The notes: generated from the letters alone by a model not told the origin. A stretch of 64,000 nucleotides of DNA from Evtepia sp. (GCA_031553635.1 JAVBLH010000019.1:2639-66638); one strand, 5' to 3'. Positions 835 to 53,902 are shown, numbered from the stretch's first letter. Program-made: numbers and translations.

Positions 835-963
835 ACCACCCCGCCCTATAGGCACCTCTCCGCGGAGGGGAATTGCGTTCTTCGCAGGGTGGAGGAAAAG
901 CCCCAGTCGCATCCCCCGTCCAATTCCCCTCCGCGGAGGGGTGGCACGCAGTGACGGGGTGGT
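835..963 (+). repeat. F1 hairpin repeat, A-spacer-B
   Basis: ACCACCCCGCCCTATAGGCAC..GGAGGGGAATT ... AATTCCCCTCCGCGGAGGGGTGGCACGCAGTGACGGGGTGGT. Confidence 0.9.
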
Positions 964-972
964 TTGATGACC

Positions 973-2220
973 CTACGCCGCCACTCGCCCCTTCACAAAG
1001 CGCTTCGCCAAAAGCCACAGCACCAAGGTACAGCCCACCGCCGGTATGGTGCTGCCCAGGGGTATCTCCAGGGTCAGGAAGAGGCGGTAGCACAAAAAGC
1101 CCAGGGCCCAAAGAAGCCCGTTGACCCACAGGCCCCGCTTAGAAAGCCGCCCCCCGGCCCCCAGAAAACCCTCCGCCGCCAAAATTACCGCCATGGGCAC
1201 GAAAACAGAGCCGATAAGGGTCAAAAAGCCCTCGTAGCGGCTGGGTGTGGCCCCCAGGGCCAAGAGGGTGCCCAAAAGGCAGCAGAAAACCCCCAGAAGC
1301 CGGGGAGAAGCCCATGGCTTCTTCCCCGCGGCTTCCCCGTCAGCCTTCCCGGTGGACGGCTCACCCGTGGGCCCGGATAATCCCAAACACAGCCGGGCGC
1401 TCTCCCCGGCGGAGTACACATCCAAAAAGGTGGTGGTCACGGTGGACAGCAAGACGATGGCCATAGCCGGAAGGCCCAGGCCCGCCGCCAATAAGATGGC
1501 CACCACGTCGCCGCTGCCGGTGTAGAGGGCAGCCACAAGACCCAGGGCATACATCAGGGCGCTGCCAAAGAGATAGGCCAGGCAGCTGCCCAGGGTCAGG
1601 GCCAGGGGCCTTTTGCTCCCCTTGGTGTAGTCCGCCAAGAGGGGCAGCCAGGAGATGGGCATGGCGATGGAAAGCTCCAGGGCCAGCCCAAAGGAGAGGC
1701 CCTCCGTGGGCAGGGCCACCGTACCGCTCCAGCCCCGAAAGATTACAAAAAACAGAGCCGCAGACAGGAGCAAAAGCCCCCCCGCCGCCAGGGCCCCCAG
1801 CTTTTCCAGCCGCCCCAGGCCCACCAGGACCCACAGCAGCACCCCGGCCCCCACCAAGAGGCACCAAAGGGCGTAAGACCCACCCCCGGCGGCGGTGCCC
1901 AGGGCCAGGCCGCCATTGGCGATCATCACCGCCGTCCAGCCCAAAAGCTGCAAAAGGTTCAGCCCCGCGAAAAACCGGGCCCCGGAAGGCCCAAAGGCCA
2001 GGGCGGCGCTCTCCATGGCCCCCAGATTCCTCTTGGCTCCCAGGTAACCCACCAAAAAGAGCCCCACCCCGCCGATGAGATGGCCCAAAAGAATCACCCA
2101 AAGGCCCAGCCAGAGGCCCAGGGGAGCCAGAAGGGCTCCCGTCCAAATTTCCGCCAGGGACACCGCCGCCCCAAACCAAAGGAGGGCGCCCCCCCGCACC
2201 GATAACCGCTGTGTTTCCAT
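973..2220 (-). CDS. cytX: NCS1/cytosine-permease family transporter, probable hydroxymethylpyrimidine transporter
   Basis: About 12 hydrophobic segments; WFGAAVSLAEIWTG and SWLPLLADY motifs; directly downstream of a TPP riboswitch; GGAGG RBS before ATG 2220. Confidence 0.7.
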   Translation of the reverse strand: METQRLSVRGGALLWFGAAVSLAEIWTGALLAPLGLWLGLWVILLGHLIGGVGLFLVGYLGAKRNLGAMESAALAFGPSGARFFAGLNLLQLLGWTAVMIANGGLALGTAAGGGSYALWCLLVGAGVLLWVLVGLGRLEKLGALAAGGLLLLSAALFFVIFRGWSGTVALPTEGLSFGLALELSIAMPISWLPLLADYTKGSKRPLALTLGSCLAYLFGSALMYALGLVAALYTGSGDVVAILLAAGLGLPAMAIVLLSTVTTTFLDVYSAGESARLCLGLSGPTGEPSTGKADGEAAGKKPWASPRLLGVFCCLLGTLLALGATPSRYEGFLTLIGSVFVPMAVILAAEGFLGAGGRLSKRGLWVNGLLWALGFLCYRLFLTLEIPLGSTIPAVGCTLVLWLLAKRFVKGRVAA

Positions 2221-2234
2221 GTTACCTCCCAATC

Positions 2235-2272
2235 AAAAAAGCCGGGCAGGCCGAAAAAAGGCCTACCCCGGC
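2235..2272 (-). terminator. Riboswitch expression-platform terminator
   Basis: Minus strand GCCGGGGTAGGCC-TTTTTTC-GGCCTGCCCGGC followed by T6. Confidence 0.7.
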
Positions 2273-2278
2273 TAAGGG

Positions 2279-2365
2279 GACTCCCTCCGTTGGCATTACC
2301 CAAATCAGGTTTCAGGGTCGAGGCAAAAAGCCTCCTCTCAGCCGAATTTCCAGCGGCTCCCCTTT
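2279..2365 (-). ncRNA. TPP (thiamine pyrophosphate) riboswitch
   Basis: Minus strand GGGGAGC..GGCTGAGAGG..GACCCTGAAACCTGATTTGGGTAATGCCAACGGAGGGAG matches THI-box hallmarks. Confidence 0.88.
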
Positions 2366-2510
2366 TTCTTGTCCCCTTCATTCTACCAGAGAAGAAACCC
2401 CGGCGCAACCACCGATTTTTCTGGTGTCGCCGGGGTTTTTGCGTTATAATAGGTGGCAAAGTACAAAACCCATGAAATAAACCCCGGCACTCAAATCAAG
2501 GAGGTTTCCC

Positions 2511-3395
2511 GTGAAAAAAACCCTCACCTTCCCCGTCCAGACGGCGGACACCCTGCTGCCCTTCCTTCTCCTGAATCTCTCGGGCAAATCCCGCAACTAT
2601 GTAAAAGGCGCCCTCACCCGGGGCCAGGTGGCGGTGGACGGCACCCCCGCCAAAAACCACGCCCAGGCCTTAAGGCCCGGCCAAACCGTGACCATACAGA
2701 TGGGCCAGGATATGAGAGAGGCCTCTTTGCCCTTTCCCATCCTCTTTGAGGACGAGAGCCTTCTGGTGATCGACAAGCCGGCGGGTCTGCTTTCCATGGG
2801 CACAGACCAGGATAAGGAAAACACCGCCTACTACCTTTTGGGCCAGTATCTGCGCCGCAAGGATAAGAGCGCCCAGGTCTTCATTGTCCACCGATTAGAC
2901 AGGGACACTTCGGGCCTTTTGCTCTTCGCCAAGAACAAGGAGACCAAAGACGCCCTACAGGAAAACTGGGAGACTTTAGTGAAGCGCCGGGGCTACCTGG
3001 CCCTGGTGGAGGGCACGGTGGAATCGACAGAAGGCCAACTGCGCTCCTGGCTCCGGGAGACCAAAACCTTTCTGGTGTACTCCAGCCCCCACGAGGGGGA
3101 CGGTAAGCTGGCCGTCACCTCCTACCGCCTTTTGAAGGCCGGGGCGCGGTACAGCCTCTTGGAGCTCTCTCTGGAAACGGGCCGCAAGAACCAAATCCGG
3201 GTTCATATGAAGGATCTAGGCCACCCCGTGGCAGGGGATAAGAAATACGGGGCCACCACCAACCCCTTAAAGCGCCTGGCCCTCCACGCCTCGGCCCTGG
3301 AGATTCAGCACCCCCACACCGGGGAGCTGATGCAGTTTAAGTCCCCCGCCCCGCCGGAATTTTCCAAGGCCTTTTCTAAAAAGCCCAGGAAATAG
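2511..3395 (+). CDS. RluA-family pseudouridine synthase
   Basis: S4-like N-terminus, VIDKPAGL, VHRLDRDTSG, LETGRKNQIRVH, GDKKYG. Confidence 0.92.
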   Translation: MKKTLTFPVQTADTLLPFLLLNLSGKSRNYVKGALTRGQVAVDGTPAKNHAQALRPGQTVTIQMGQDMREASLPFPILFEDESLLVIDKPAGLLSMGTDQDKENTAYYLLGQYLRRKDKSAQVFIVHRLDRDTSGLLLFAKNKETKDALQENWETLVKRRGYLALVEGTVESTEGQLRSWLRETKTFLVYSSPHEGDGKLAVTSYRLLKAGARYSLLELSLETGRKNQIRVHMKDLGHPVAGDKKYGATTNPLKRLALHASALEIQHPHTGELMQFKSPAPPEFSKAFSKKPRK

Positions 3396-3446
3396 GAAGT
3401 GCACCAAAAGAAGCCCCCACCAGCTCGGAATCCCACCAGTTAGGAG

Positions 3447-5108
3447 ATGCGCGCCATGACCAAGGCCCCCCCGAAGTCAGCCCCGGCCCCCGGCCCCACC
3501 CCGGAAAGCTCCGGCAAAAAGCCCAATGCCTGGCAGCGAATGCAGCTGAGCGAGCGGCTTCTTGCCATCATGCTGGCGGTGGCCATGGCGGGGGTGCTGG
3601 TTTCCACCCTCTGCTTTAGCCTCTCCTTCGCCCGCATCCTCCAGGGGGCCAAAGAGGGGGCCGATACCATGTCCCAAACCGTCCACGACATGGTGGAGAG
3701 CGGCTTTTACCAGCAGGAGACCTTCCTCTGGCAGAGCTATGTCCAAACCCAGCAGGAGGAGATTTTTCGCCAGTTGGAGGCCCTGAAAAAAGAGGGCAAC
3801 GCTCCCCACTGGCAGGCCCTGACCCAAGAGGTCTACCAACTCATCGACGATAGGGACAAGGCCCTGGGCATGGGCAACCTGGAGCAGGAATTTGCCACCC
3901 AATTTCTCATTGCCGACGAGAAGCTCTACCTCTACGGCCACCTGGACGAGACGGCCTTCCTCGCCGAAACGGAAACCTTTTTTAAGGACATCTGGGAGGC
4001 GGAATACTTTCCCAACGAGGGCTTTTGGGCCACGGTGACTAAGGATCCCTATGGCAACTACTTTTACCAGGCCCCCGACAGCTATATCATGGTCTGGTAC
4101 CCCTTAGAGGGGGGCGACAGGATAGGACTCTTCGTCTCCAACGAGACCATCGCCAGCCTCTCCTCCACCCTGGACATCGTTCTGGACGAGGCCAGCGTCT
4201 TAGCCCAAGACGCCATGGAAACCCAGGTGCAGCAGTCTCTTCTGGGTCTCTTTTTCGCCCTCTTCATCCTGGTGCTGCTGCTGCCCCCCGTGGCCCGGCG
4301 GCTGGCCCGGGTGGTGGTGACCCCCGTGGAGGCCGAGCAGGAGCGCCAGGAGGGCCTCCTCCAAGAGGCCATCGCCGAGGGGGAGATGCTGGCGGAACTG
4401 GACAGGCTGAAAACCGAGTTTTTAGCCAACATCGCCCATGAATTAAAGACCCCTCTCACCGTGGTCTCCGGCAACGCCCAGGACGCCCGCCGCCGGTTCG
4501 CCAACCTGGGAGAAGCCGCAGACCCGGAGGAGCGAGGGGCCATAGACAGCCAGCTGGGGCGCATCTCCGCCGAGGCCGAGCGCCTGGGGCTCTTGGTGTC
4601 TCAAGTGCTGGACGCCACCCAAATCCAGGAGGGCAGTATGCGCCTGGGCCTGCAAAGGCTCTCGGTGGTGGAGCTCTTAGGCCGCACGGTGGAGGATTAT
4701 TACCCCCTGGTCACCAAGAATCAAAACCGCCTGACCCTGGCCATAGACCCGGCCCTGCCCCCTGTCCGGGCCGACGGGGCCCGGGTTTCCCAAGTGCTGG
4801 TAAACCTCCTTAGCAATGCCATTCGCCACACCCAGGACGGGGAAATCACCGTCACCGCCAAGGCCCGGGGGGCTTTTGTGGAGGTGGCCGTCCGGGACAC
4901 GGGGGAGGGCATCCCGCCCGAGGTGATGGGGCTACTCTTCCAGCGGTTTCGCAGCGGCGCGGGGCCTTCTAAGGGCGGCACGGGCCTGGGGATTTACATC
5001 GCCCGGGCCATCATCGAGGCCCACGGGGGGGAGATTTTTGTGGAAAGCACCCCCGGTGTGGGGACGGTGATGACATTCACCTTGCCGGTGTGGGAGGGGG
5101 ATTGCTGA
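3447..5108 (+). CDS. Membrane sensor histidine kinase
   Basis: Two TM segments, FLANIAHELKTPL H-box, QVLVNLLSNAIRH N-box, DTGEGI and GTGLG G-boxes. Confidence 0.9.
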   Translation: MRAMTKAPPKSAPAPGPTPESSGKKPNAWQRMQLSERLLAIMLAVAMAGVLVSTLCFSLSFARILQGAKEGADTMSQTVHDMVESGFYQQETFLWQSYVQTQQEEIFRQLEALKKEGNAPHWQALTQEVYQLIDDRDKALGMGNLEQEFATQFLIADEKLYLYGHLDETAFLAETETFFKDIWEAEYFPNEGFWATVTKDPYGNYFYQAPDSYIMVWYPLEGGDRIGLFVSNETIASLSSTLDIVLDEASVLAQDAMETQVQQSLLGLFFALFILVLLLPPVARRLARVVVTPVEAEQERQEGLLQEAIAEGEMLAELDRLKTEFLANIAHELKTPLTVVSGNAQDARRRFANLGEAADPEERGAIDSQLGRISAEAERLGLLVSQVLDATQIQEGSMRLGLQRLSVVELLGRTVEDYYPLVTKNQNRLTLAIDPALPPVRADGARVSQVLVNLLSNAIRHTQDGEITVTAKARGAFVEVAVRDTGEGIPPEVMGLLFQRFRSGAGPSKGGTGLGIYIARAIIEAHGGEIFVESTPGVGTVMTFTLPVWEGDC

Positions 5109-5477
5109 TTCCCCATGGGAATGGTGATTTGGTTCTACCATACTGATAGGTGTTTGGTTTTGTACCGCCCTGGCAGGACGGGGGAGCTTGTCTTTTCAGA
5201 CGGAACACCCTTTCTCACGTGAGAAAGGGTGGAAAGAACGCCAAGGGGGCGATTCCCCCTTGGAACCCCCTATGATGAAGTGGGTGCGAGGGCGCGCCTA
5301 CTGGGTGGGTCGTACGATTTGGTGTTACCATGCTCATGTAGGATAGGGTTTTTCTCTGGTTTCTTAAGAAAACGTGGTTTTCGGTAGGAATAAGCTGGTG
5401 GGCCGCAACCGAGGCTGTTTTTGGCTCGGGGCTTTTGTTGTGGTTCACTTTAGGTTGTTTGGGTGACTGAGGTAGTC

Positions 5478-5608
5478 ACCACCCCGCCCTATGGGCACCC
5501 CTCCACGGAGGGGAATTGTGTACTACTGTGAGGCAGCGGAAAACTCAAACCGCATCCCCCGTCCTAATTCCCCTCCTGTGGAGGGGTGGCACGAAGTGAC
5601 GGGGTGGT
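5478..5608 (+). repeat. F1 hairpin repeat, A-spacer-B
   Basis: Both arms intact; spacer GTGTACTACTG..CCCCCGTCCT. Confidence 0.92.
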
Positions 5609-5794
5609 TAACCGCCAGCGCAGCGCGCCCAGGGCTTGGTGTTTCCTCACCAAAGAACCACAGAAAAAAAGGACCCCGGGACAACCAAAGACAGTGGCAC
5701 TCACTGGGTGAAAACGGGCACGCCAAGACGCACCCAAGCCAAATCCCGCCAATTCGTACGGGTGTATCAAAAAAACCTGACCGTCTGCCATCAA

Positions 5795-5931
5795 AATTCC
5801 CCTCCGTGGAGGGGTGGCACGAAGTGACGGGGTGGTTTCGCCAGGTATGGAAACACGGTGACTACAACTGGGTGGTAATTTCAACGTTGAAACCACCCCG
5901 CCCTTTGGGCACCCCTCCACGGAGGGGAATT
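5795..5931. repeat. F1 back-to-back cassette (hairpin-B-55 nt-A-hairpin)
   Basis: 21-bp inverted repeats AATTCCCCTCCGTGGAGGGGT / ACCCCTCCACGGAGGGGAATT enclosing 97 bp (counted from hairpin ends). Confidence 0.92.
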
Positions 5932-6029
5932 GGACGGGGGCGTGAAACTACATCAGAAATGCCCAGCCTTGCACCAAACCAAAAAAGGGTTCAGAAGGAT
6001 GAAAACCTTCCGAACCCTTTTTCACATTG

Positions 6030-7856
<1,827 letters not shown>

Positions 7857-7991
7857 GGAATGGCTCCTCATATTACAATATAAAAAATCGTTACAAACAC
7901 AATATTATACTTGACATCGCAAAATTTTGCAAGGGCCAAATTTTCCTTGGGAGGCCTTTCAAAATTTTTTCAAAAACTTTTCAAAAACCCC

Positions 7992-8036
7992 TTGACTTTC
8001 TCCCTGGTTGTGGTATTGTATTAATCACTTAGTACA
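7992..8036 (+). promoter_or_regulatory. Sigma-A-like promoter overlapped by a probable GntR(YtrA) operator
   Basis: TTGACT (7992) and TATTGT (8014); imperfect palindrome TGTATTAA-TCAC-TTAGTACA at 8017-8036 upstream of the GntR gene. Confidence 0.55.
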
Positions 8037-8088
8037 TTAAGGCAGCGACACAGCGGCAAGACAATAAACTAACACAGGAGGTGTTTCC

Positions 8089-8463
8089 ATGACGTGGCAA
8101 TTTCAAAGCGACCAGCCCATCTACACCCAGCTTATCGCCAAGCTGACCCTGGAGATCGTGGCGGGCCGGTTTCCCCCGGGGAGCAAGTTTCCCTCGGTGC
8201 GTGACCTCTCCCAAGATGCCGGGGTAAACCCCAACACCATGCAAAGAGCACTCACCGAGCTGGAGCGGGAGGGCCTGCTTTTCAGCCAGCGGACATCTGG
8301 AAGATTCATCACGGAGGATTTGGACATGATACAAAACGCCAAGAAAAACTTAGCAAGGGCACACATCCAGTGCTTCGTAGAGGCTATGAAGGATTTAGGC
8401 TACAGCAAGGCCGAGATCATAGACCTGCTGCGCCAAACGGAAGAGAAAGGAGAGGCATCATGA
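8089..8463 (+). CDS. GntR (YtrA subfamily) transcriptional regulator
   Basis: PIYTQL, PSVRDL, VNPNTMQRALTELE; short C-terminus; precedes ABC genes. Confidence 0.9.
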   Translation: MTWQFQSDQPIYTQLIAKLTLEIVAGRFPPGSKFPSVRDLSQDAGVNPNTMQRALTELEREGLLFSQRTSGRFITEDLDMIQNAKKNLARAHIQCFVEAMKDLGYSKAEIIDLLRQTEEKGEAS

Positions 8464-9158
8464 CTGATATTTTAACCTGTAAGGGCCTTTGTAAACGCTA
8501 TAACGCCATCGAAGCCCTAAAATCTGTGGACCTCTCCATCCAGCCCGGGCGCATTGTGGGCCTCTTGGGCCCCAACGGCAGCGGCAAAACCACCCTGATT
8601 AAATTAGCCAACGGTCTTTTAACCCCCACCGCAGGCGAGATTCTGGTGAACGGGGAAAAGCCGGGCAAAACCTCCCACAGCCTAGTCTCCTACCTCCCCG
8701 AGCGGACTAGTGTTCCCCTCTGGATGACGGTGAACCAGCTTTTAGACTTCTATCAGGATTTTTACGCCGATTTCGACCGCCCCGTGGCGGTGACCATGCT
8801 GGAAAACCTGGGCATACCCGGCAAGAGGAAGATCAAGGAGCTCTCCAAGGGCACCCGGGAAAAAGTCCAGCTGGTGATGGTCATGAGCCGCAAGGCGCGG
8901 CTCTACCTTCTCGACGAGCCCATAGGCGGCGTGGACCCGGCGGCCCGGGATTACATTCTCAATACCATCATCGGCAACTATAACCCCGAGGCCTCGGTGG
9001 TCATCTCCACCCATCTCATCGCCGACGTGGAGCCCGTGCTGGACGAGGTCATCTTCATCAACCAGGGCGCCATTATGCTCACCTCCACCGTGGACGACAT
9101 TCGGGAGGAGAAGGGCACCAGCGTAGACGCCCTCTTTAGGGAGGTATTCAAATGTTAG
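8460..9158 (+). CDS. ABC transporter ATP-binding protein
   Basis: GPNGSGKTT Walker A, LSKG signature, LLDEP Walker B; ATGA overlap with GntR stop. Confidence 0.92.
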   Translation: MTDILTCKGLCKRYNAIEALKSVDLSIQPGRIVGLLGPNGSGKTTLIKLANGLLTPTAGEILVNGEKPGKTSHSLVSYLPERTSVPLWMTVNQLLDFYQDFYADFDRPVAVTMLENLGIPGKRKIKELSKGTREKVQLVMVMSRKARLYLLDEPIGGVDPAARDYILNTIIGNYNPEASVVISTHLIADVEPVLDEVIFINQGAIMLTSTVDDIREEKGTSVDALFREVFKC

Positions 9159-10067: not shown

Positions 10068-10199
10068 ACCACCCCGCCCTATGGGCACCCCTCCACAGAG
10101 GGGAATTAGGACGGGGGATGCGGACGATGGTTTTCCTCTACCTCACAGTAGAACGCAATTCCCCTCCTGTGGAGGGGTGACACGAAGTGACGGGGTGGT
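10068..10199 (+). repeat. F1 hairpin repeat, A-spacer-B
   Basis: Both arms; spacer AGGACGGGGG..GTAGAACGC. Confidence 0.9.
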
Positions 10200-15364: not shown

Positions 15365-15493
15365 ACCACCCCGTCACTGCGTGCCCCCCCTCCAAGGAGG
15401 GGAATTTGGGCGGTTGATAGCCGAAAGGTTTGCCTCTCTCCATTCCGTTATCCCATTCCCCTCCGGGGAGGGGTGCCCATAGGGCGGGGTGGT
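15365..15493 (-). repeat. F1 hairpin repeat (B-spacer-A on plus)
   Basis: ACCACCCCGTCACTGCGTGCC.. and ..GGAGGGGTGCCCATAGGGCGGGGTGGT. Confidence 0.88.
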
Positions 15494-19422: not shown

Positions 19423-19543
19423 ACCACCCCGCCCTATGGGCACCCCTCCAGGGAGGGGAATGGGACGGGGTTGGAAGTGCCCTTCCGCGATCTACTACCC
19501 AAATTCCCCTCCTTGGAGGGGTGGCACGCAGTGACGGGGTGGT
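19423..19543 (+). repeat. F1 hairpin repeat, A-spacer(type 2)-B
   Basis: Both arms intact. Confidence 0.9.
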
Positions 19544-21395: not shown

Positions 21396-21491
21396 GACTA
21401 TCAACTCCATTGAATGGGTTTATTTTTTGAGCCTAAACAGGCTGGGGGGTTTGGTTGTTCTCTCTTGGGTTTCCGGCTAACTGACGTAGTC

Positions 21492-21708
21492 ACCACCCCG
21501 CCCTTTGGGCACCCCTCCACAGGAGGGGAATTAGGACGGGGGATGCGGGTTGGGGTGTGCGGCTAACTGACGTAGTCACCACCCCGCCCTTTGGGCACCC
21601 CTCCAAGGAGGGGAATTAGGACGGGGGATGCGGGTTGAGTTTTCCGCTGCCTTACAGTAGTACACAATTCCCCTCCTGCGGAGGGGTGGCACGCAGTGAC
21701 GGGGTGGT
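21492..21708 (+). repeat. F1 repeat with duplicated arm A (A-A-spacer-B, 86-bp period)
   Basis: Arm A at 21492 and 21578, arm B ends 21708. Confidence 0.92.
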
Positions 21709-26612: not shown

Positions 26613-26734
26613 ACCACCCCGCCCTTTGGGCACCCCTCCATAGAGGGGAATTGGGGTGGGGGGGAGCCAAAGCGCTCTCCCTTCTCTCGTACCATTCCCC
26701 TCCGTGGAGGGGTGGCACGCAGTGACGGGGTGGT
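26613..26734 (+). repeat. F1 hairpin repeat with a divergent spacer
   Basis: Both arms intact. Confidence 0.88.
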
Positions 26735-28189: not shown

Positions 28190-28408
28190 GTTATTTTTCA
28201 CCTCTAAAGTGGATTTTTTATGATTTTACCATCATGGTAGATGGGGTTTTTGTTCTGCCATGCTGGTAGGCGTTTGGTTTGTACCGTCCTGGCAGGACGG
28301 GCGAGCTTGTCTCTTCAGACGGAACGATGTGTCACTTTCTCTTTCGGACAGAGTGTCCGGGGCTTTTGTTGTGGTTCTCTTTTTGGTGTATGGGTGACTG
28401 AGGTAGTC

Positions 28409-28540
28409 ACCACCCCGCCCTTTGGGCACCCCTCCACAGGAGGGGAATTAGGACGGGGGCTTCGGGTTGGGGTTTCCACAGCCTCACAGTAGTACACAAT
28501 TCCCCTCCTGTGGAGGGGTGGCACGCAGTGACGGGGTGGT
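28409..28540 (+). repeat. F1 hairpin repeat, A-spacer-B
   Basis: Both arms intact. Confidence 0.92.
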
Positions 28541-35479: not shown

Positions 35480-35653
35480 ACCACCCCGCCCTTTGGGCAC
35501 CCCTCCACGGAGGGGAATTTTGGTAGTCGTTTGCCGAAGGGATTGCCGTTTCCCTCGTCCAATTCCCCTCTGTGGAGGTCAAATTGACCAGTGGACAATT
35601 TGATAAGATCATGGGAAGCCACATTGAAGAAGGGCACGAAGTGCCGGGGTGGT
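35480..35653 (+). repeat. F1 repeat whose arm B is interrupted by the 53-bp F3 module (35579-35631)
   Basis: A arm intact; B arm split after GGAGG. Confidence 0.88.
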
Positions 35654-35679
35654 TTCCCGTCCACCTGGCCTCCGTCCTT

Positions 35680-37899
35680 CTAAAATATCGGCGGCGGCGG
35701 GTCTTTCTTCTTCTCCTCCGGCTTACCCCGCTCCTGGGGCTGGCGGAACGGCCCACGGAACCCGTCCTCCTCCGGCATCTCCGGGGGCAGGGTCCGCTGG
35801 TAGGTTCTCCGGGGCGGCGCTTCCGTCCCGTTCCCCCTTTCCTCCGAAGGCTCCAGGCCCTCCAGGGCGTCCAAATCCCCGGCCTGGCTCATGCGCTCCC
35901 GGGGGGACACCCAGGGTTTTTCCACGATGACCTCCACAGGCTCCGCCACGGCGTTGGGGTCTCGGCCCTCTAAAATGGCCATGAGCTCCGTGCCGGTGAT
36001 GGTCTCCTTCTCCAGGAGGTAGGCCGCCACCTTTTCCAGCATCTCCCTGTCTTCCACCAGGATCTTCATGGCCTCGTCGTGGGCCTCCTGGATGATGCTC
36101 TTGATCTCGGCGTCAATCTGGGCGGCGGTGTCGTCGGCGCAGGTGAGGCCCATGTTCCCTTCCAGATATTGGCTCTGGACCGTAGCCAGGGCCATCATGC
36201 CGAACTTATCGCTCATGCCGTACATGGTCACCATGCGCCTTGCCAAATCCGTGGCTCTTTCGATATCGTTGGCGGCCCCCGTGGTCTGGGTGCCGAAGAC
36301 CAGCTCCTCGGCGCAGCGGCCGCCTAGGAGTATGCGTATCTCCCCGTGGATATATTCTCTATCCATGAGGAAGCGCTCCTCCTCGGGGGTCTGCATGGTA
36401 AAGCCCAGGGCACCCTTGGTTCTGGGGACGATGGTAATTTTGGTGACGGGCTCCGCGTCCTTCTGCCGGACGGCGACCAGAGCGTGGCCCACCTCGTGGT
36501 AGGCGATAAGGCCCTTCTCCCGCTCGGTGAGAACGGTCCCCTTCTTCTCCGCCCCGGCGATGACCTGCTCGAAGGAGGCCAAAAGATCTCGCTGATTTAC
36601 GGCCTTGCGCTCCATGCGCACGGCACGGAGAGCGGCTTCGTTCACTAAGTTGGCCAGATCGGCCCCCACGCAGCCCGCCGTGGCCTGGGCTAATTTGTTC
36701 AGGTCCACGTCCTCCGCCAGACGAATTTTCCGGGTGTGGACTTGCAGGGTGGCCAAACGGCCCGCCAGGTTGGGCCTATCCACGGTGATGCGTCTGTCAA
36801 AGCGCCCGGGCCGCAGGAGAGCCTTGTCCAAGACCTCGGGTCTGTTGGTGGCCGCCAGAACGATGACCCCCTTGGTGGGGTCAAAGCCGTCCAGTTCCGC
36901 CAAAAGCTGGTTTAAGGTCTGGTCCCTCTCGTCGTTGCCCCCGCCGAAGCGGTTATCCCGGCTTTTGCCTATGGTGTCGATCTCGTCGATGAAGACGATA
37001 CAGGGGGCCACTTTGGCGGCCTCCTTAAAGAGGTCACGAACCCGGGAAGCGCCCACGCCCACGAACATCTCTACAAAGTCTGAGCCGGAGATGGAGAAAA
37101 AGGGCACCCCGGCCTCCCCCGCCACGGCCTTGGCCATAAGGGTCTTACCGGTACCCGGGGAGCCGACGAGCAAGGCCCCCTTGGGCAATTTCGCGCCGAT
37201 CTCCGTGTATTTCTTGGGGCTGTGGAGGAAGTCGATGATCTCCTGGAGGGACTCCTTGGCCTCGTCCTGGCCCGCCACGTCTTGGAAGGTGATCCCCGTG
37301 GAGCGTTCCATATAAACCTTGGCGTTGGCCTTACCCACGCCGCCGAGACCGCCCATGCCCCCCATGCGCCGGGAGATGAAGTAGAAGGCGCCCACCAGGA
37401 TGAGAAGGGGCAGCACATAGACCACTAGCATACTAAGAAGGGCGGAGGATTCCTTCTTCTTCTCAAAGACCAGCTCCACCCCGTGCTCCTCTAGGCGGGG
37501 CTCCACGCTGGTGGCGAAGAGGAAGTTGTCTACCGAGGTGGTGGCCAGGGTTTCCGGCTGGGCCGCGGCCTGCTCCTGGCTGGCCTGGGCGTTTTCCAGC
37601 ACCTCCTGAAGGCTTTGGGGCTCCTCATTGGGCAGGGTCACTGCCGGGCCCTCTTCCGACTTGGGGGTGATGAGATACAGGTTGGGCTTTACCTCCACCT
37701 TCTCTACCTTGTCCTCCTCCACCATTTGGATGAAGGCGGAGTAGGGCAAAAGGTCATCTTGGCCCTGGGTGAGGCGGCTGTAAAAAAAGTGGCTGGTCAT
37801 CACCAGAATGGCGACCAGGAGGAGGATGTTCAGCATCCCACCTCGGCCTTTTTGGGGCGGCCCCTCGGGTTTTTTGTTGTTATTTTGATTGGGCGGCAC
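35680..37899 (-). CDS. ftsH: ATP-dependent zinc metalloprotease FtsH
   Basis: Two TM, FQDVAGQDEAKE, GSPGTGKT, RPGRFDR, HEVGH. Confidence 0.97.
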   Translation of the reverse strand: MPPNQNNNKKPEGPPQKGRGGMLNILLLVAILVMTSHFFYSRLTQGQDDLLPYSAFIQMVEEDKVEKVEVKPNLYLITPKSEEGPAVTLPNEEPQSLQEVLENAQASQEQAAAQPETLATTSVDNFLFATSVEPRLEEHGVELVFEKKKESSALLSMLVVYVLPLLILVGAFYFISRRMGGMGGLGGVGKANAKVYMERSTGITFQDVAGQDEAKESLQEIIDFLHSPKKYTEIGAKLPKGALLVGSPGTGKTLMAKAVAGEAGVPFFSISGSDFVEMFVGVGASRVRDLFKEAAKVAPCIVFIDEIDTIGKSRDNRFGGGNDERDQTLNQLLAELDGFDPTKGVIVLAATNRPEVLDKALLRPGRFDRRITVDRPNLAGRLATLQVHTRKIRLAEDVDLNKLAQATAGCVGADLANLVNEAALRAVRMERKAVNQRDLLASFEQVIAGAEKKGTVLTEREKGLIAYHEVGHALVAVRQKDAEPVTKITIVPRTKGALGFTMQTPEEERFLMDREYIHGEIRILLGGRCAEELVFGTQTTGAANDIERATDLARRMVTMYGMSDKFGMMALATVQSQYLEGNMGLTCADDTAAQIDAEIKSIIQEAHDEAMKILVEDREMLEKVAAYLLEKETITGTELMAILEGRDPNAVAEPVEVIVEKPWVSPRERMSQAGDLDALEGLEPSEERGNGTEAPPRRTYQRTLPPEMPEEDGFRGPFRQPQERGKPEEKKKDPPPPIF

Positions 37900-39087: not shown

Positions 39088-39410
39088 ACCACCCCGTCAC
39101 TGCGTGCCACCCCTCCGCAGGAGGGGAATTGTGTACTACTGTAAGGCAGCGGAAAACTCAACCCCCATCCCCCGGCCTAATTCCCCTCCAGTGGAGGGGT
39201 GCCCATAGGGCGGGGTGGTGACTACCTCAGTCACCCGCAAACCTCAACCCGCATCCCCGTCCTAATTCCCCTCCTGTGGAGGGGTGCCCAAAGGGCGGGG
39301 TGGTGACTACCTCAGTCACCCGCACACCCCAACCCCCATCCCCCGGCCTAATTCCCCTCCTGTGGAGGGGTGCCCAAAGGGCGGGGTGGTGACTACCTCA
39401 GTCACCCGCA
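39088..39410 (-). repeat. F1 array B-spacer-A-A-A (85-86-bp period)
   Basis: AATTCCCCTCC of arm A at 39179, 39264, 39350. Confidence 0.92.
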
Positions 39411-41846: not shown

Positions 41847-41929
41847 GGTCAATAAGGCAGTCCGCAGAGGGTGGGCAGAAAAAGTTGCAAACTTTTGCTG
41901 CACGGCCGCGGAGGGCAGACTTATTGACC
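41847..41929 (+). repeat. F2 83-bp repeat
   Basis: GGTCAATAAG...CTTATTGACC; flanked by CTGACAGGGAAG repeats. Confidence 0.88.
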
Positions 41930-41999
41930 GTCGCGCAGTCCCTTGGAGCCTGACAGGGAAGGGCGAAGAGGGCAGAGCCTGACAGGGAAGCGCGAAGAA

Positions 42000-42128
42000 A
42001 CCACCCCGCCCTTTGGGCACCCCTCCACGGAGGGGAATTGTGTTCCACTGCCAGGCGCCGGAAACCCTCACCGCAGCCCCCGTCCTAATTCCCCTCCATG
42101 GAGGGGTGGCGCGAAGCGACGGGGTGGT
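42000..42128 (+). repeat. F1 hairpin repeat, A-spacer-B
   Basis: Both arms. Confidence 0.9.
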
Positions 42129-43678: not shown

Positions 43679-43900
43679 ATGCCAGACTATAAAGAACTTT
43701 ACTTAACCCTTATGCGGGAAACAGAAAAAGCCATCCGCACCCTTACCGCCGCGCAGCAAACCTGCGAAGAGCTCTATTTGCAGCAGTCAGAACAGGAGGA
43801 AACCGTCCTCCCCTTCCCCACGTGCGGCCCTGAACGTCAAAGTTACGAAGCACCCAAGCCAAATCCCGCCACTTCGTACAGGTGTATCAAAAAAAACTGA
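43679..43900 (+). CDS. Small hypothetical helical protein (MPDYKELY...), divergent from the XRE gene
   Basis: AAGGGGAG RBS; TTGACT/TACAAT promoter-like motifs at 43631-43659. Confidence 0.65.
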   Translation: MPDYKELYLTLMRETEKAIRTLTAAQQTCEELYLQQSEQEETVLPFPTCGPERQSYEAPKPNPATSYRCIKKN

Positions 43901-43914
43901 CCGGCCGCCACCAA

Positions 43915-44051
43915 AATTCCCCTCCGTGGAGGGGTGCCCAAAGGGCGGGGTGGTTTCAACGTTGAGATTACCACCCAGTTGTTGTCACCGTGTTTCCATA
44001 CCTGGCAAAACCACCCCGTCACTTCGTGCCACCCCTCCACGGAGGGGAATT
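43915..44051. repeat. F1 back-to-back cassette, inverted relative to 5795-5931
   Basis: Internal 97 bp is the reverse complement of 5815-5911 (3 mismatches) with co-linear flanks. Confidence 0.92.
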
Positions 44052-44138
44052 GGACGGGGGGCGCGAAACTCTGACATGCCTCGCCTTGCACCAACCACCC
44101 CCCATGTGGCAAGCATACACAAAAAAGGGAGGAGGACA

Positions 44139-47170: not shown

Positions 47171-47270
47171 TTGCACTAGCTCCTTTATCCCATAAAAGGG
47201 CAACCCGTGAAACCGGGCTCTATGTCACTTGCTGGATTTTTATCCCATGTCGGGGTTACTGTACCGAGTC

Positions 47271-47393
47271 ACCACCCCACCCTGCGGGCACCCCTCCACA
47301 GGAGGGGAATTTGGGTGGTAGATCGCAGAAGGTTTCTCAGCTCCCCCGTCCAATTCCCCTCCGTGGAGGGGTGGCACGCAGTGACGGGGTGGT
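47271..47393 (+). repeat. F1 hairpin repeat, A-spacer(type 2)-B
   Basis: Both arms; between gyrB and gyrA. Confidence 0.9.
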
Positions 47394-47436
47394 TTCCAAA
47401 GTCTTCCCAAGGTCTGCTTTACCCTCTGTGCCCTTC

Positions 47437-49419
<1,983 letters not shown>

Positions 49420-49434
49420 TTATTCTTTCGCCGC

Positions 49435-49510
49435 CCAAATTATCCAGTAGACAATTTGACCAGATTATGTGAAGCCACATCGAAGAAAGGCGCGAAGTAA
49501 AAGGATGATT
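49435..49510 (+). repeat. Degenerate F3 module + arm-B remnant just 3' of the DUF559 gene
   Basis: CAAATTATCCAGTAGACAATTTGA..GAAGCCACATCGAAGAA aligns gap-free to 35579-35631; followed by GGCGCGAAGTAAAAGGATGATT resembling GGCACGAAGTGACGGGGTGGTT. Confidence 0.7.
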
Positions 49511-49521
49511 CTATGTTCTTA

Positions 49522-49908
49522 TCAACCCGAATCTTCACACAAAGCAGGGTGATTATACAGCATTTCCATCACAGTATTCAGGTCATTCAAAACATCCTGA
49601 GCCTGGATGTGAATCACTGTCAGACCCAGACCCTCTAAATAGGCGTTCCGCTCACTGTCATACTCCTGCTTCTCATCATGGGACTTGCCGTCAATTTCAA
49701 TGACAACGTGACAATTTAGGCAGTAGAAATCTACAATAAAGTTGCCAATAATTTTCTGCCTGTCAAAGTCGAATTTATTAAACTTTTTTCTATTAAGCTG
49801 CTTCCAAAGGAGTACTTCACATAAGTACCCTGCTTTTCGCAGCTCTTTCGCTCGCTCTCGCAGGGTTGGATTATATGGAAGTGCGTTATATGCTTGATAG
49901 TTTCGCAT
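49522..49908 (-). CDS. DUF559 / Vsr-like PD-(D/E)XK endonuclease
   Basis: RAKELRK..E..LW..L, FDRQKIIGNFIVDFYC, VIEIDGKSH, D.ER..YL; visibly AT-rich. Confidence 0.88.
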   Translation of the reverse strand: MRNYQAYNALPYNPTLRERAKELRKAGYLCEVLLWKQLNRKKFNKFDFDRQKIIGNFIVDFYCLNCHVVIEIDGKSHDEKQEYDSERNAYLEGLGLTVIHIQAQDVLNDLNTVMEMLYNHPALCEDSG

Positions 49909-49945
49909 CGTTCACACTCTACTTCTTCGATGCTGTAACGGAGCA

Positions 49946-50075
49946 ACCACCCCGCCCTATGGGCACCCCTCCACGGAGGGGAATTGTGTCCTACTGTGAG
50001 GTAGAGAAAACCCAAACCGCATCCCCCGTCCTAATTCCCCTCCTGTGGAGGGGTGGCACGAAGTGACGGGGTGGT
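49946..50075 (+). repeat. F1 hairpin repeat immediately 5' of the DUF559 gene
   Basis: Both arms intact, 37 bp from the ATG. Confidence 0.92.
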
Positions 50076-50119
50076 TCCACTAGCTCTCCATAACGTATGC
50101 CAATCCCTTATCAGGAACA

Positions 50120-50389
50120 TCACCCAACAGAAAACCCCCCAGACTCCACCCTGCGCAGCAGGGTAGCCGAAGAAAGCTGCGACAGATACACCACCTCTTC
50201 CCCAAAGGAATCCCGGCACAAAACCATGGCCTTGGGCAGGTCCAGGGACACATCCACCACCCAGCCCTCCTCTTGGGCCCGTTTCAAAAACCCACGGGTC
50301 CGGTGGGACGTACTCACCTTATCCAGATCAAAAATCCCCACCACATCCCGGAAAGGAATCACAAAATTCTGCCCCAAATGGAGGTACAA
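50120..50389 (-). CDS. remB: DUF370 / RemB-like protein
   Basis: MYLHLG..VVGIFDLD, VYLSQLSSATLLRR; canonical position between recF and gyrB. Confidence 0.75.
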   Translation of the reverse strand: MYLHLGQNFVIPFRDVVGIFDLDKVSTSHRTRGFLKRAQEEGWVVDVSLDLPKAMVLCRDSFGEEVVYLSQLSSATLLRRVESGGFSVG

Positions 50390-50489
50390 GTCTGAAAACC
50401 CCTTTCACTTATCAACATTGGGCGAAACAATGGGGAAAGTTTCACCCTTTCGTGCAACAAAGGAAAAATTATTGTCGCGCAAAGGAGGG

Positions 50490-50621
50490 ACCACCCCGCC
50501 CTTTGGGCACCCCTCCACAGGAGGGGAATTAGGACGGAGGATGCGGTGGGGGTTTTCCTCTCCCACTCAGGAGCACACAATTCCCCTCCTGTGGAGGGGT
50601 GGCACGCAGTGACGGGGTGGT
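50490..50621 (+). repeat. F1 hairpin repeat
   Basis: Both arms; between recF and remB. Confidence 0.92.
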
Positions 50622-50648
50622 TTTCCACCCGCCGGGGCCTGTGTACTT

Positions 50649-51752
50649 CTATTCCAATAGTGTCCCATCCGCAATGGTCAAAACCCTGGCCTCGGGCCGC
50701 CGCAGCTGGGGCACCTCGCAGCCGGTGATAAACACCTGGCCACCCTGGATATGCTCCAGGACAAAATCCTGCCGCTTCTGATCCAGCTCCGAGAGCACAT
50801 CGTCCAGAAGCAAAACCGGCCACTGCTCCGTGGCTTCCCGGTGTATCATCCGCTCCGCCAGTTTTAAGGAGAGGGCCACCGTTCGGGTCTGGCCCTGGGA
50901 GGCAAACTGCCGGGCCGCCTTGCCGTCTATCTCCGCCACCATGTCGTCCTTATGGGGCCCCGAGAGGCAGCTGCGGCTGCGCAATTCCGCCTCCTCATGA
51001 AGCTTTTGGTGCTCCACCAGCTGGGGATAGATGGCCGAAGGGGCCGCCAAGGGGTCCTCCACGGTCTTCACCGTCTCGTAAATCAGGTTCAAATCCTCCC
51101 GGCCGCCGGAAAACTCCCGCTGTATCTCCCTGGAAAGGGCCAAGAGCCGCCGGATAAAGTTGGCCCGGTAGTGGATGATCAGGGCCCCGGTAACGGCCAT
51201 GGTCTGGTTAAAATCCTCCAGGACGGAAAGGAGCCCCGGCTTTTCCCAATAGTCTCGCAAAATACGGTTCTTATGGTCTAAGCAGCGCTGATACCGGGTG
51301 AGGGCATCGGCATATTTGGGCCGCAATTGAGAAATCGCCGTGTCTAAAAACCGCCGCCGCTCCGCCGCCCCCTCCCGCACTAAGGATAAATCCTCCGGGC
51401 AGAAGAGTACCGTATGGAAAAGGCCCGACAGTTCCCCGGCCTTCTTCAGCTTCACATGGTTCACGGTAATGGCCCGTCTGTGGTTTTTCCGCAGAGCGAT
51501 CTCCACGGAAAAATCCCGCCCCCGGGACTCCAATTGGGCCCGGATGAGCCCCTCGTCCCGGTGAAAGAGAATCAGGTCTCTATCCAGCCGGGTCCGGTGG
51601 GATTTTGCCCCGGAGAGGTAGCCTATGGCCTCCATGAGGTTGGTTTTCCCCTGGGCGTTCTCCCCGGTGATCACGTTCATATCCGGGGAGAAGGCAGCGG
51701 AAAAGCCCTCATAGTTGCGAAACCCGTCCAGGGCGATCTCCTTAATGTTCAT
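50649..51752 (-). CDS. recF: DNA replication/repair protein RecF
   Basis: [38 protein letters not shown]. Confidence 0.97.
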
Positions 51753-51961
51753 AGAACCTCCAGCCGCAGGCCCGGCAGGGTCACGATATCGCCGGGCCGC
51801 AGCTTCTTCCCTCTCTGGGTGCAGGTTTCGCCGTTGACCTGCACCTCTCCGTCTAAAATGGCAAGCTTCGCCACGCCCCCGGTGTCCATGACTCCGGCGA
51901 ACTTCAAAAAGGCGTCCAGCTTAATAAATTCCGTTTCTATCTTCACCTTTTGGGTCGGCAT
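51749..51961 (-). CDS. yaaA: S4-domain RNA-binding protein YaaA
   Basis: [30 protein letters not shown]; between dnaN and recF. Confidence 0.9.
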
Positions 51962-52079
51962 CTGTGTTTCTCCTTTAACGGCTGTTCACTGTGTACAGGG
52001 TGGGGGGTGATGGTGGTGCTAAACTCCGGCCTATGGGCCCTTTGCGATGTCACGCAACCAGGGACTATGCGAGGGGATT

Positions 52080-52209
52080 ACCACCCCGCCCTATGGGCAC
52101 CCCTCCAAGGAGGGGAATTAGGACGGGGGATGCGGCTTGGGGTTTCCACTGTCTCACAGGAGTACACAATTCCCCTCCGTGGAGGGGTGGCACGCAGTGA
52201 CGGGGTGGT
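52080..52209 (+). repeat. F1 hairpin repeat (partial F2 follows at ~52225-52262)
   Basis: Both arms; between dnaN and yaaA. Confidence 0.92.
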
Positions 52210-52272
52210 TTTCCCTAAGGTCACCCTCTGCGGACTGCCTGATTGACCTGCTCCGCCCTCTCCGCTCTTCGG

Positions 52273-53379
52273 TTACTCCCCGGCTCTAAGCCGCACCGGC
52301 AGCACCATGTAAATAAAGTCTACCTCTCCCTCATGGGGCTTAATGACGCAGGGAGAAACCCCGCTGGAGAGCTCTAAGCGGACCTTCTCCGCCGGAGCCG
52401 CACGCAGGGCATCCAACATATAGCGATTATTGAACCCGATCTCCAATCCGGCCCCGTCCCCTTCCACATAGCAGCAGTCCGAGGCGGTACCGATGGCGGT
52501 TTTGGTGGTGATGTCCATGGTCTGGTCCCCAAAGACGCAGCGCAGGGGGCTCTTTAATTTATCGGTGATGATCAGGGACACCCGCTCGATGGAGGAGAGT
52601 AAATTCTTGGTCTCCGAGACGATTTTCACCGGGTTCTCCTTGGGAATGGCCTTCTCCCAGGCCAAAAACTCCCCTTCCAGCCGCCGGGAGATGAGAATCA
52701 CCTCGCCGATCTCAAAAACGATGTGCTTATCCCCCAGCAGCACCGTGGCCAGATCCCCGGTGTCCTTGCAGATACGGGCCACTTCTAAGAGGGCGGCCCC
52801 GGGGGTGACAAAGTGGTAGCCCCCTTCACAGGGCTCAATCTCCTCCCGGCGCATGGCCAGGCGGAAGCCGTCTACGGAGACCATGGTGAGCTTTGTCTCC
52901 CCCACCTCGAAGAGGGAGCCGGTGTGTATGGGCCGGGAGTCGTTGTCCGACACGGCAAAGATGGTCTGCTCTATCATGGCCCGCAGGGAGGCCTCGGTGA
53001 TTTGGAAGGACTTTCTATAGTCTACCACAGGCAGCTGGGGAAAATCGTCGGGGTCCATGCCCATAAGGGTAAATTCACTCATGCCGCACTTTAGGGTAAC
53101 CATCAGCTTATGGGCCTCGAAGGACACCACATCATCAGGCATCTTGCGAATGATCTCTCCAAAGAGCCGGGCGGGGAGGATGATGGCCCCGGCCTTGTCT
53201 ATATCCACAGAAACCGCAGCTCTAATCCCCGTTTCCAGGTTATAGCCTGTCACGGTGAGCATAGTCTCGCAGGAGAGGAGGAGGCCTTCCAGGGCGGGAA
53301 TGGAGCTTTTCGGCGACACAGCCCGGGAGGCGGTGGCTATGGCGGCCTGCAGCAGGGCCTTTTCGCAAGTAAATTTCAT
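52273..53379 (-). CDS. dnaN: DNA polymerase III beta clamp
   Basis: MKFTC, VDGFRLA, GEFLAW, IGFNNRY, MVLPVR. Confidence 0.96.
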   Translation of the reverse strand: MKFTCEKALLQAAIATASRAVSPKSSIPALEGLLLSCETMLTVTGYNLETGIRAAVSVDIDKAGAIILPARLFGEIIRKMPDDVVSFEAHKLMVTLKCGMSEFTLMGMDPDDFPQLPVVDYRKSFQITEASLRAMIEQTIFAVSDNDSRPIHTGSLFEVGETKLTMVSVDGFRLAMRREEIEPCEGGYHFVTPGAALLEVARICKDTGDLATVLLGDKHIVFEIGEVILISRRLEGEFLAWEKAIPKENPVKIVSETKNLLSSIERVSLIITDKLKSPLRCVFGDQTMDITTKTAIGTASDCCYVEGDGAGLEIGFNNRYMLDALRAAPAEKVRLELSSGVSPCVIKPHEGEVDFIYMVLPVRLRAGE

Positions 53380-53450
53380 GGTAACGTTCCTTTCTGGTGT
53401 TCTCCGGAGAGAGCCCCCCCGCAGGAGGCATAGCCTCTCTCCTTAAAGGA

Positions 53451-53630
53451 GAAGATAGGATAAAGATAGTAATAATAGTACGTAGGGAAATTTTTTGTGG
53501 AAAACCCTCAAATTTCCTTGATTTGCAAGGGTTAGACCCTCCACAGGGGGTGGGGAAATATCGTACAACCTTGTGTATGATTTTTTCCACAGTGAAAATT
53601 GTCCACATGATGTTTTCAACATATCCACAA
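53451..53630. other. oriC: DnaA-box cluster and DnaA-trio/unwinding element
   Basis: DnaA-box variants at 53496-53504, 53572-53580, 53583-53591, 53599-53607, 53621-53629; minus strand TTTTCCACA..CCC-TACGTACTATTATTACTA next to the dnaN RBS. Confidence 0.8.
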
Positions 53631-53679
53631 AATCTGGGGATTTTTTTATGGGGTTACCAAGCGGTTAACTGACGTAGGC

Positions 53680-53902
53680 ACCACCCCGACCTATGGGCAC
53701 CCCTCCACAGGAGGGGAATTAGGACGGGGGTGCGGGTTGAGTTTTCCGCTGCCTCACAGGAGTACACAATTCCCCTCCTGTGGAGGGGTGGCACGCAGTG
53801 CCGGGGTGGTTTCCCCTCCTATGGAGGTCAAATTGACCAGTGGACAATTTGATAAGATCATGGGAAGCCACATGGAAGAAGGGCAGGTCGTGACGGGGTG
53901 GT
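53680..53902 (+). repeat. F1 repeat + extra B arm containing F3 (53828-53880), between dnaA and the DnaA boxes
   Basis: A-spacer-B followed by a split B arm. Confidence 0.9.

Follow-up and report, generated by a model that had tools for sequence, protein, structure and literature searches.

When an asymmetric spacer is found either way round between two arms that keep their places, how often has it turned, and by what route? This question is raised by a stretch of 64,000 nt from Evtepia sp. (GCA_031553635.1 JAVBLH010000019.1:2639-66638; the window, below, is this stretch at its full length), the intergenic spaces of which are crowded with a repeat of ~130 nt. The host assembly is a 2.17-Mb metagenome-assembled genome (MAG) of 41 contigs, obtained from short reads of an invertebrate gut sample at ~10x depth. 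Complete repeat units, in which a spacer lies between two arms (A and B), number 17 in the window and 40 genome-wide.

Each unit is a head-to-head doublet of one ~45-nt arm. The arm consists of ACCACCCC, a small variable hairpin (GCCCTWTGGGC in arm A, GTCACTKCGTGCC in arm B), the palindromic hairpin H (CCCCTCC-N2-3-GGAGGGG) and AATT. Read from A to B, the order of a unit is ACCACCCCG, hairpin A, H, AATT, spacer (39-49 nt), AATT, H, hairpin B (GGCACGMAGTGAC) and CGGGGTGGT. H and AATT together form an inner inverted repeat of 21-23 bp on both sides of every spacer. In the window, AGGACGGGGG occurs 14 times (0.6 expected by chance) and GGGGAATT-N35-60-AATTCCCC occurs 16 times (0.01 expected). All 40 complete units have one arm A and one arm B, with no A+A or B+B combinations. 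Genome-wide, the type-1 spacers (~48 nt; n=26) are forward in 15 units, with the AGGAC end adjoining arm A, and reversed in 11. The type-2 spacers (~40 nt) are forward in five units and reversed in nine, giving an overall ratio near 50:50 (20 forward versus 20 reversed).

The original prediction, made from the window alone, had held that the two arms can be told apart and that spacer orientation can be read from them. This proved correct: every coordinate that it gave is an exact unit start and every orientation call is right, both for type 1 (forward at 10068, 21578, 28409, 50490, 52080 and 53680 on the plus strand and at 39088, 57006 and 61482 on the minus strand; reversed at 835, 5478, 42000 and 49946) and for the second spacer type (forward at 19423, reversed at 47271). 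The spacer start letters that it quoted are mostly accurate, with exceptions at 50490 (AGGACGGAGG), 39088 (AGGCCGGGGG) and 835 (GCGT rather than GTGT). Its list of units was sound in its entries and incomplete, lacking two complete units (15365 and 26613) and two type-2 reversed units with a damaged arm (35480 and ~63497).

Matched pairs of copies locate the inversion precisely. In six such pairs, the flanks and arms are co-linear (75-100% identity in direct alignment) and the spacers match as reverse complements (47/48, 41/48, 41/47, 42/49, 30/40 and 32/41 identical positions). In the pair formed by unit 5478 and a copy on another contig (C8:178318), direct alignment matches the left flank at 70/93 positions, arm A and its hairpin at 33/38, the second hairpin and arm B at 36/37 and the right flank at 75/92. 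The spacer of this pair matches at only 22/53 positions directly, versus 47/48 as the reverse complement. In the copies with long conserved flanks, arm A is constantly on the same flank regardless of spacer orientation; therefore, the flip ends at the inner stem and never reaches the 9-bp outer stem. Whichever way the spacer is turned, a T-to-G variant at the final position of AATT accompanies its G-rich end; the breakpoints thus lie nearer to the hairpin than this base.

The same breakpoints recur where the arms are arranged tail to tail. Two copies of this arrangement share their left and right flanks and differ by inversion of the inner 97 bp (arm B, 49 nt and arm A; 5815-5911 versus 43935-44031). 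Here, the same hairpins bound the inverted segment, with AATT on the outer side. Because these hairpins bound an inverted segment of quite different content, the flip does not depend on what is enclosed, and H plus AATT is the common denominator of all breakpoints. The universal A+B pairing of the 40 units is predicted by inversion at the inner repeat and not by free assortment of arms. Inversion of the whole palindrome by parvovirus-like hairpin transfer was also considered and is ruled out, as neither A nor B ever changes sides with respect to the long flanks. Adeno-associated virus flip/flop is, as commonly described, similar in that two forms arise by inversion of an internal palindromic segment with two distinguishable small hairpins. 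It is said to differ in that the virus inverts its whole terminal palindrome by hairpin transfer at a linear end, whereas here the A and B hairpins are fixed and the apical loop alone turns, within a chromosome.

The distribution of orientations indicates that such flips have occurred repeatedly. A type-1 tree was built from whole units (26 in number) after all spacers had been re-oriented to one direction. Forcing the reversed copies into one clade lowers the log-likelihood by 40.9 (approximately unbiased [AU] test, p=0.0027). The maximum-likelihood tree has seven orientation changes (6-8 in bootstraps), compared with 8.7 for shuffled labels, and a tree of the spacers alone has six. Orientation is already random in type-1 pairs the spacers of which are 90% or more identical (14 pairs with the same orientation, 12 with opposite ones), and spacers that are 1 nt in 48 apart are found in opposite orientation. 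Both orientations are present in type 1, in type 2 and in the subfamilies with and without conserved asymmetric flanks of ~100 nt; within type 2, both occur in the AATG as well as in the AATT boundary sub-lineage. At least four to five separate flips are needed, whatever lies between the hairpins. The proposal that flipping between the inner hairpins is recurrent and independent of spacer sequence is supported by this AU test, by the presence of both orientations in each subfamily and by the tail-to-tail inversion. The alternative named in the original prediction, two monophyletic orientation classes left by a single ancient inversion, does not hold genome-wide, where orientation switches recur.

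Folding of the units as single-stranded DNA predicts one long hairpin, whether forward or reversed and whether of type 1 or type 2 (z = -4.3 to -8.0). This hairpin has a 9-bp outer stem, an internal loop with the A and B hairpins, an inner stem of 21-23 bp and the spacer as its terminal loop. No conserved fold was found inside the spacers, and no sigma-70-like promoter site was found in the spacers of 49300-54100. Neither spacer orientation (18 versus 12) nor arm orientation (20 antisense, 10 sense) is significantly related to the direction of neighbouring genes, for which the gene calls are crude. As there is no conserved fold, no promoter-like site and no consistent relation to gene direction, the spacers behave as passive loops, and their orientation is probably without function.

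The proposed model for the flips is as follows. A unit would fold with the inner inverted repeat as its stem and the spacer as its loop, and replication would stall. A template switch between the two copies of the inner repeat, the most likely step, would invert the loop by a recA-independent route. In E. coli, recA-independent exchange occurs at closely spaced inverted repeats. The same repeat pair, arranged tail to tail, would invert the segment that it encloses there (5815-5911 versus 43935-44031), and flips would accumulate after insertion of units from a forward source. Repeated, independent loop inversion in place, by strand exchange between inner repeat copies during replication, is with moderate confidence the most probable explanation of the data; that the flips took place in situ and by template-switch chemistry is what we infer from the pattern. 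Three features of small inversions mediated by inverted repeats are present, namely a bounding repeat that can form a stem, co-linearity outside it and homoplasious orientation. Tandem half units that are without a second hairpin are all forward. Among type-1 units, imperfect inner repeats are found in 9/11 reversed and 4/15 forward copies (Fisher p=0.015, in a post hoc comparison), and the arms of reversed copies are slightly more diverged (p=0.096). The forward half units, the imperfect repeats and the arm divergence lend weak support to flips after insertion.

Several observations weigh against this model. All of the trees have a star-like shape in which no branch is strongly supported, and homoplasy could be imitated by gene conversion among the copies. 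In the long-flank subfamily taken alone, a single reversed clade is not rejected (AU p=0.12). The sequence is contained in only three sequencing runs, in which the contigs are unitig-level, come from one sample and break off at the arms. The exact DnaN sequence was found only in that sample, with no second strain in the collections searched, and metagenome relatives have at most 65% DnaN identity and none carries the arm. A search of the genome contig collection for the type-1 junction gave one chance-level match only, in a Paludibacteraceae MAG. The repeat family of another genome, G023, has the same arms with a 24-nt loop and shows no flip among ~27 standard units, and three near-identical contig pairs from different samples show no difference in orientation. 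Because these units and contig pairs are unflipped, the unit architecture alone is no guarantee of frequent flipping. Lastly, an enzymatic route would also agree with two features: AATT, itself palindromic, is present at each arm boundary, and a nuclease gene, discussed below, lies adjacent.

This gene encodes a DUF559 protein. It is present in a single copy (42% G+C), starts 38 nt from arm A of unit 49946 and has lost the arm at its 3' end. DUF559 homologues with 69-73% identity to the window protein are bracketed by the same arm in five independent contexts (genome G023 and four MAGs, of which two are labelled in their sources as Oscillospiraceae, one as Defluviitaleaceae and one as Armatimonadota), with the layout AATT-hairpin-small hairpin-GGGGTGGT, gene, ACCACCCC-small hairpin-hairpin-AAT(T). 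The G023 homologue (70% identity) has the exact bracket, ATT-H-small hairpin-GGGGTGGT, gene, ACCACCCC-small hairpin-H-AATT, and its C-terminal residues (..NHPAL..) are encoded by the arm. No other H sites lie within ~10 kb of the bracketed loci, except for one adjacent head-to-head unit upstream of the gene (L136/L137). The elements are bounded on both sides by AATT or AAT, which is compatible with a target, a duplication or a part of the element. Apart from the missing gene, the tail-to-tail pairs (5728-5980 and 43848-44095) are laid out like a cassette. The ~45-nt arm is thus the terminal inverted repeat of small DUF559 cassettes in several phyla. The arm was absent from 18 genomes of the same genus, and of 401 genomes of the order, 15 have the H-AATT motif, spread across six families (a control pattern gave no matches). 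Because this distribution is patchy, a mobile element is indicated.

[quoted passage not shown] As in MITEs, their termini are common to a gene-carrying partner; as in REPINs, they are inverted doublets (40 in all) that fold into a long hairpin. The REP/REPIN-RAYT systems, reportedly described by Nunvar in 2010 and by Bertels and Rainey in 2011, are likewise said to combine a hairpin repeat in inverted orientation around a single-copy nuclease-type gene with scattered inverted doublets. Unlike in those systems, the gene here encodes a nuclease of the DUF559/Vsr fold and not an HUH Y1 transposase. To our knowledge, spacer inversion is no described feature of REPINs. A RAYT was examined as a possible driver and rejected: PF01797 matches only an IS200-type fragment in the genome, and the RAYT-like open reading frames (ORFs) of G023 and G028, used as tblastn queries, match nothing in it. 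In G023 and G028, these ORFs have no flanking arm. The fragment is the start of an IS200-type TnpA gene (MDKNTLAHTTWNCKYHIVFAPKYRRKVI; C23 172760-172843), cut by the contig end, and is the sole Y1-transposase signal in the genome.

Related loci vary in their repeats. In G023 (L018-L049), the small hairpin of the arm is modular: no fewer than five different hairpins fill the same frame. At one G023 locus (L046), hairpin-AATT-spacer-AATT forms a tandem array without outer arms, as would be expected from recombination between palindromic hairpins serving as direct repeats. A metagenome contig with a DnaN of 57% identity (L061) carries a distant DUF559 gene (7955-8500; 39% identity) ~1.9 kb downstream of dnaN. 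This gene is followed by different repeats of its own, made up of a hairpin and a G-rich tail (CCTTCCCC-TTGA-GGGGAAGG...GGATGAGGTGG), a hint of co-variation between nuclease and repeat.

The association with a nuclease gene gives rise to a different explanation, in which the flips are traces left by the chemistry through which the element itself moves. An enzyme, whether the DUF559 nuclease or another, would cleave the hairpin/AATT boundary of both arms, and the released segment would be rejoined either way round or reinserted at an AATT site. Because this boundary is palindromic, the inter-arm segment has two equivalent ends, and one boundary cut site would cover the flips in both the head-to-head and the tail-to-tail arrangements. 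AATT follows the inner hairpin at 77 exact sites in the Evtepia sp. genome, and does so in 14 other genomes of the order as well; the five arm-bracketed contexts and the near-even ratio of orientations also favour such a route. However, the DUF559 family has no known nuclease or transposase activity, and neither a cut site nor a target duplication is known for it. The window gene is without its 3'-end arm, and G023, in which the gene is intact and perfectly bracketed, has no flipped standard unit; nor do the three contig pairs show a change. Rejoining of double-strand breaks is, moreover, inefficient in bacteria without a transposase-like complex. Cutting and rejoining by an enzyme is the main rival and is regarded as rather unlikely. 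Its more specific form, in which DUF559 recognizes and cuts the hairpin-AATT boundary of its own terminal repeat so that the cassette, its gene-less derivatives and the spacers all rejoin either way, is a little more doubtful still. A small number of ancient inversions followed by copying is improbable. One or two old flips would have produced master copies, with proliferation and gene conversion blurring the phylogeny thereafter; the unsupported branches and the long-flank subfamily result agree with this, as does the finding that the nearest spacer neighbour has the same orientation in 18 of 26 type-1 units (~51% expected). Nevertheless, a single type-1 reversed clade is rejected, opposite orientations are found in spacers that differ at one position, and the occurrence of both orientations in every type, flank subfamily and boundary sub-lineage, together with the tail-to-tail pair, calls for several events regardless.

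Control of neighbouring genes by a site-specific recombinase that flips the spacer, as in invertons, is very improbable. Perfect inverted repeats do flank the segments, and invertons are common in the gut, where the host lives (PMC5903667). A comparison of ~40 ORFs from the window with Pfam found no serine or tyrosine recombinase, however. Furthermore, the spacers have no promoter-like site and no relation to gene direction, and a loop of 40-57 bp is generally held to be too short for duplex synapsis by known invertases. Finally, the orientation of each spacer might have been set arbitrarily during assembly, as ~10x short-read metagenome data with many identical arms could allow. This is hardly credible: the inner repeat of 21-23 bp is below any usual final k, all 40 units are complete A+B pairs, and forward and reversed copies each have their own substitutions. 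In addition, the sample was assembled independently at k=31, and a Logan contig from that assembly crosses from bases specific to arm A, via the hairpin, to the reversed spacer with no mismatches (49960-50040). Replicative loop inversion remains the preferred explanation.

Similar inversions are known in plastids, where small inversions are always bounded by hairpins and may flip 5-7 times per site on one tree (PMC6824564). As in plastid flip-flop inversions (Kelchner and Wendel 1996; Kim and Lee 2005; as described in PMC6824564), the loop is inverted, the breakpoints lie in the stem and the flanks are untouched; the change is recurrent in both cases and no enzyme is known. Plastid inversions, however, have loops of 5-50 nt and concern single orthologous loci compared between species, whereas here ~40 dispersed bacterial copies are paralogous, the flips are seen between these copies and a tail-to-tail arrangement is also involved. 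The Correia elements of Neisseria (CREE/nemis) are reported to invert (Elbeyioglu et al. 2017; Siddique et al. 2011; both cited in PMC10969869). These are small intergenic repeats (~100-150 bp) with terminal inverted repeats and an asymmetric core that lies either way round, as here. Sequence and host are unrelated, and in CREE the whole core between the terminal repeats is reported to turn and to carry promoters, whereas in Evtepia sp. the innermost loop alone turns, each arm can be told from the other and keeps its flank, and promoters are not seen.

The arm also resembles the BoxC/PIT-type triplex repeats, which are reported to halt DNA polymerase in vitro and to be markers of unstable loci (Holder et al. 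2015, PMC4666352). Like BoxC, PIT and TMECO repeats (PMC4666352), every arm has a pyrimidine block, a purine block and a mirror purine block (CCCCTCC, GGAGGGG and GGGGTGG). Read antiparallel, the third block places T opposite the single A, which by sequence has the mirror geometry of an intrastrand purine-motif triplex. BoxC, PIT and TMECO repeats are, as here, intergenic and abundant; they occur in many bacteria and are linked to local rearrangement (PMC4666352). The arm differs from the BoxC consensus (CCCTCNCCC-N3-6-GGGNGAGGG-N3-GGGNGAGGG; PMC4666352) in having blocks of 7 nt and another sequence, and its second loop is a 12-14 nt hairpin, compared with 3 nt in BoxC, PIT and TMECO.

The window is the replication-origin region of the genome, with the gene order dnaA-dnaN-recF-gyrB-gyrA (dnaA at 54043-55359), and it also encodes ParAB, several aminoacyl-tRNA synthetases and YidC. 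Taken with SLH proteins and the labels of the DUF559 homologues, this gene order suggests Clostridia, possibly of an Oscillospirales-like kind. Repeat units occupy the dnaA/dnaN, dnaN/recF, recF/gyrB and gyrB/gyrA gaps. Units are strongly clustered on contigs C20 (the window plus flanks), C36 and C37. C20, a contig of 77.6 kb near the origin that makes up 3.6% of the genome, has 21 of the 40 complete units. Of 148 regular-expression matches to the arm, 87 are on C20, and ~50 are look-alikes from spacer ends or chance matches. In metatranscriptome contigs (run X2), the summed depth over the units in 49853-50154, 52118-52268 and 53779-53900 is far above that of neighbouring genes, which hints that units are present in stable RNA, although copies elsewhere add to the sum. 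An Rfam scan of the window found a TPP (thiamine pyrophosphate) riboswitch (RF00059, 57.6 bits; 2265-2373, minus strand), upstream of a permease-like ORF (973-2232), and nothing else.

In the long-flank subfamily, flanks of ~100 nt (5380-5477 and 5609-5680; also at 28330, 39220, 56940 and elsewhere) are conserved and mutually complementary, and this repeat is therefore really a layered hairpin of ~280 nt. The left flank has a variable hairpin followed by GGGCTTTTGTTGTGGTTC...GGTTAACTGACGTAGTC, and the right flank has GGTTAACCGCCAACGCAGCGCGCCCAGGGCTTGGTGTTTC...GAACCACAGAAAAAA. Units without long flanks adjoin another dispersed motif, GACTTATTGACCGTCGCGCAGTCCC..GGAGCGTGACA..GAAGCGC (C37:50542, C8:149595 and C38:92569; ~41900-42000 in the window). 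In several units, a 53-nt module with a 24-nt palindrome (CAAATTGACCAGTGGACAATTTGA), here called F3, is found at one fixed insertion point after GGAGG in the B-side hairpin (window 35580-35632, 53829-53881, 28804, 43097 and 49436; C8:97056, C36:5482 and C37:85319). The arm is intact beyond the insertion, and F3 resembles another very small insertion element, one with the hairpin as its target. Polar tandem arrays are present at 21490-21577, 39220-39400, 57139-57230 and 61615-61990. These consist of arm A and half or all of a forward spacer, in one to three repeats (period 85-87 or 107 nt), and precede one complete unit; multiplication never extends to arm B. Their junctions look like slippage between the GGGTTG of the spacer and a similar run in the left flank. 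The coordinates of all features are given in Table 1.

Table 1. Repeat units, tail-to-tail arm pairs and DUF559 loci (positions in the window unless a locus is named)
Feature	Position	Strand	Details
Unit, type 1 reversed (A to B)	835-963	+	spacer with AATT 871-925
Unit with long conserved flanks, type 1 reversed	5478-5608	+	spacer 5514-5569; reverse complement 47/48 identical to forward copies elsewhere
Tail-to-tail arm pair (gene-less cassette)	5728-5980	+	AATT, hairpin, arm B, 49 nt, arm A, hairpin, AATT
Unit, type 1 forward	10068-10199	+	spacer 10104-10160
Unit, type 2 forward	15365-15493	-	spacer 15403-15457; absent from the earlier list
Unit, type 2 forward	19423-19543	+	spacer 19459-19505
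Half unit (arm A and half spacer) in tandem with a complete type-1 forward unit	21490-21708	+	complete unit 21578-21708
Unit, type 2 reversed	26613-26734	+	spacer 26649-26696; absent from the earlier list
Unit, type 1 forward	28409-28540	+	
Unit, type 2 reversed	35480-35680	+	B-side hairpin split after GGAGG by the 53-nt palindromic insert (F3)
Complete type-1 forward unit, then two tandem half units of arm A only	39088-39400	-	complete unit 39088-39219
Unit, type 1 reversed	42000-42128	+	
Tail-to-tail arm pair, second copy	43848-44095	+	flanks co-linear with 5728-5980; inner segment 43935-44031 in opposite orientation
Unit, type 2 reversed	47271-47393	+	
DUF559 (Vsr-like nuclease) gene	49522-49908	-	128 aa
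Unit, type 1 reversed	49946-50075	+	
Unit, type 1 forward	50490-50621	+	
Unit, type 1 forward	52080-52209	+	
Unit, type 1 forward	53680-53810	+	followed by a solo arm B split by F3, 53811-53930
Complete type-1 forward unit and one tandem half unit	57006-57230	-	complete unit 57006-57138
Complete type-1 forward unit and three 107-nt tandem units	61482-61990	-	complete unit 61482-61614; tandem units have arm A and a full forward spacer, without arm B
Unit with damaged A side, type 2 reversed	about 63497-63590	+	adjoins an intact arm B
DUF559 gene and arm-bracketed homologues	window 49522-49908; L008 113-555; L131-L137		

Loop inversion is a known class of mutation; here it is unusually dense, in a repeat family that is apparently undescribed and is tied to DUF559 cassettes. 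It is usually met as isolated events, whereas ~20 records are found here in one genome and one family. They cover both types of spacer and both topologies of the arms, which serve as a built-in marker of orientation. Flips can outpace point substitution and so lead to misleading alignments and trees of bacterial repeats, and the family offers a natural system for measuring inversion at short inverted repeats. If the flips are purely replicative, they are a clear yet ordinary example of a known process. The breakpoints are pinned to CCCCTCC-N-GGAGGGG plus AATT, the terminal repeat of widespread DUF559 cassettes, which gives a concrete site at which to look for DUF559 activity. Were the nuclease to be responsible, this would be the first mechanism for DUF559 and for BoxC-like repeats, and a genome with ~40 outcomes would serve as its natural read-out.

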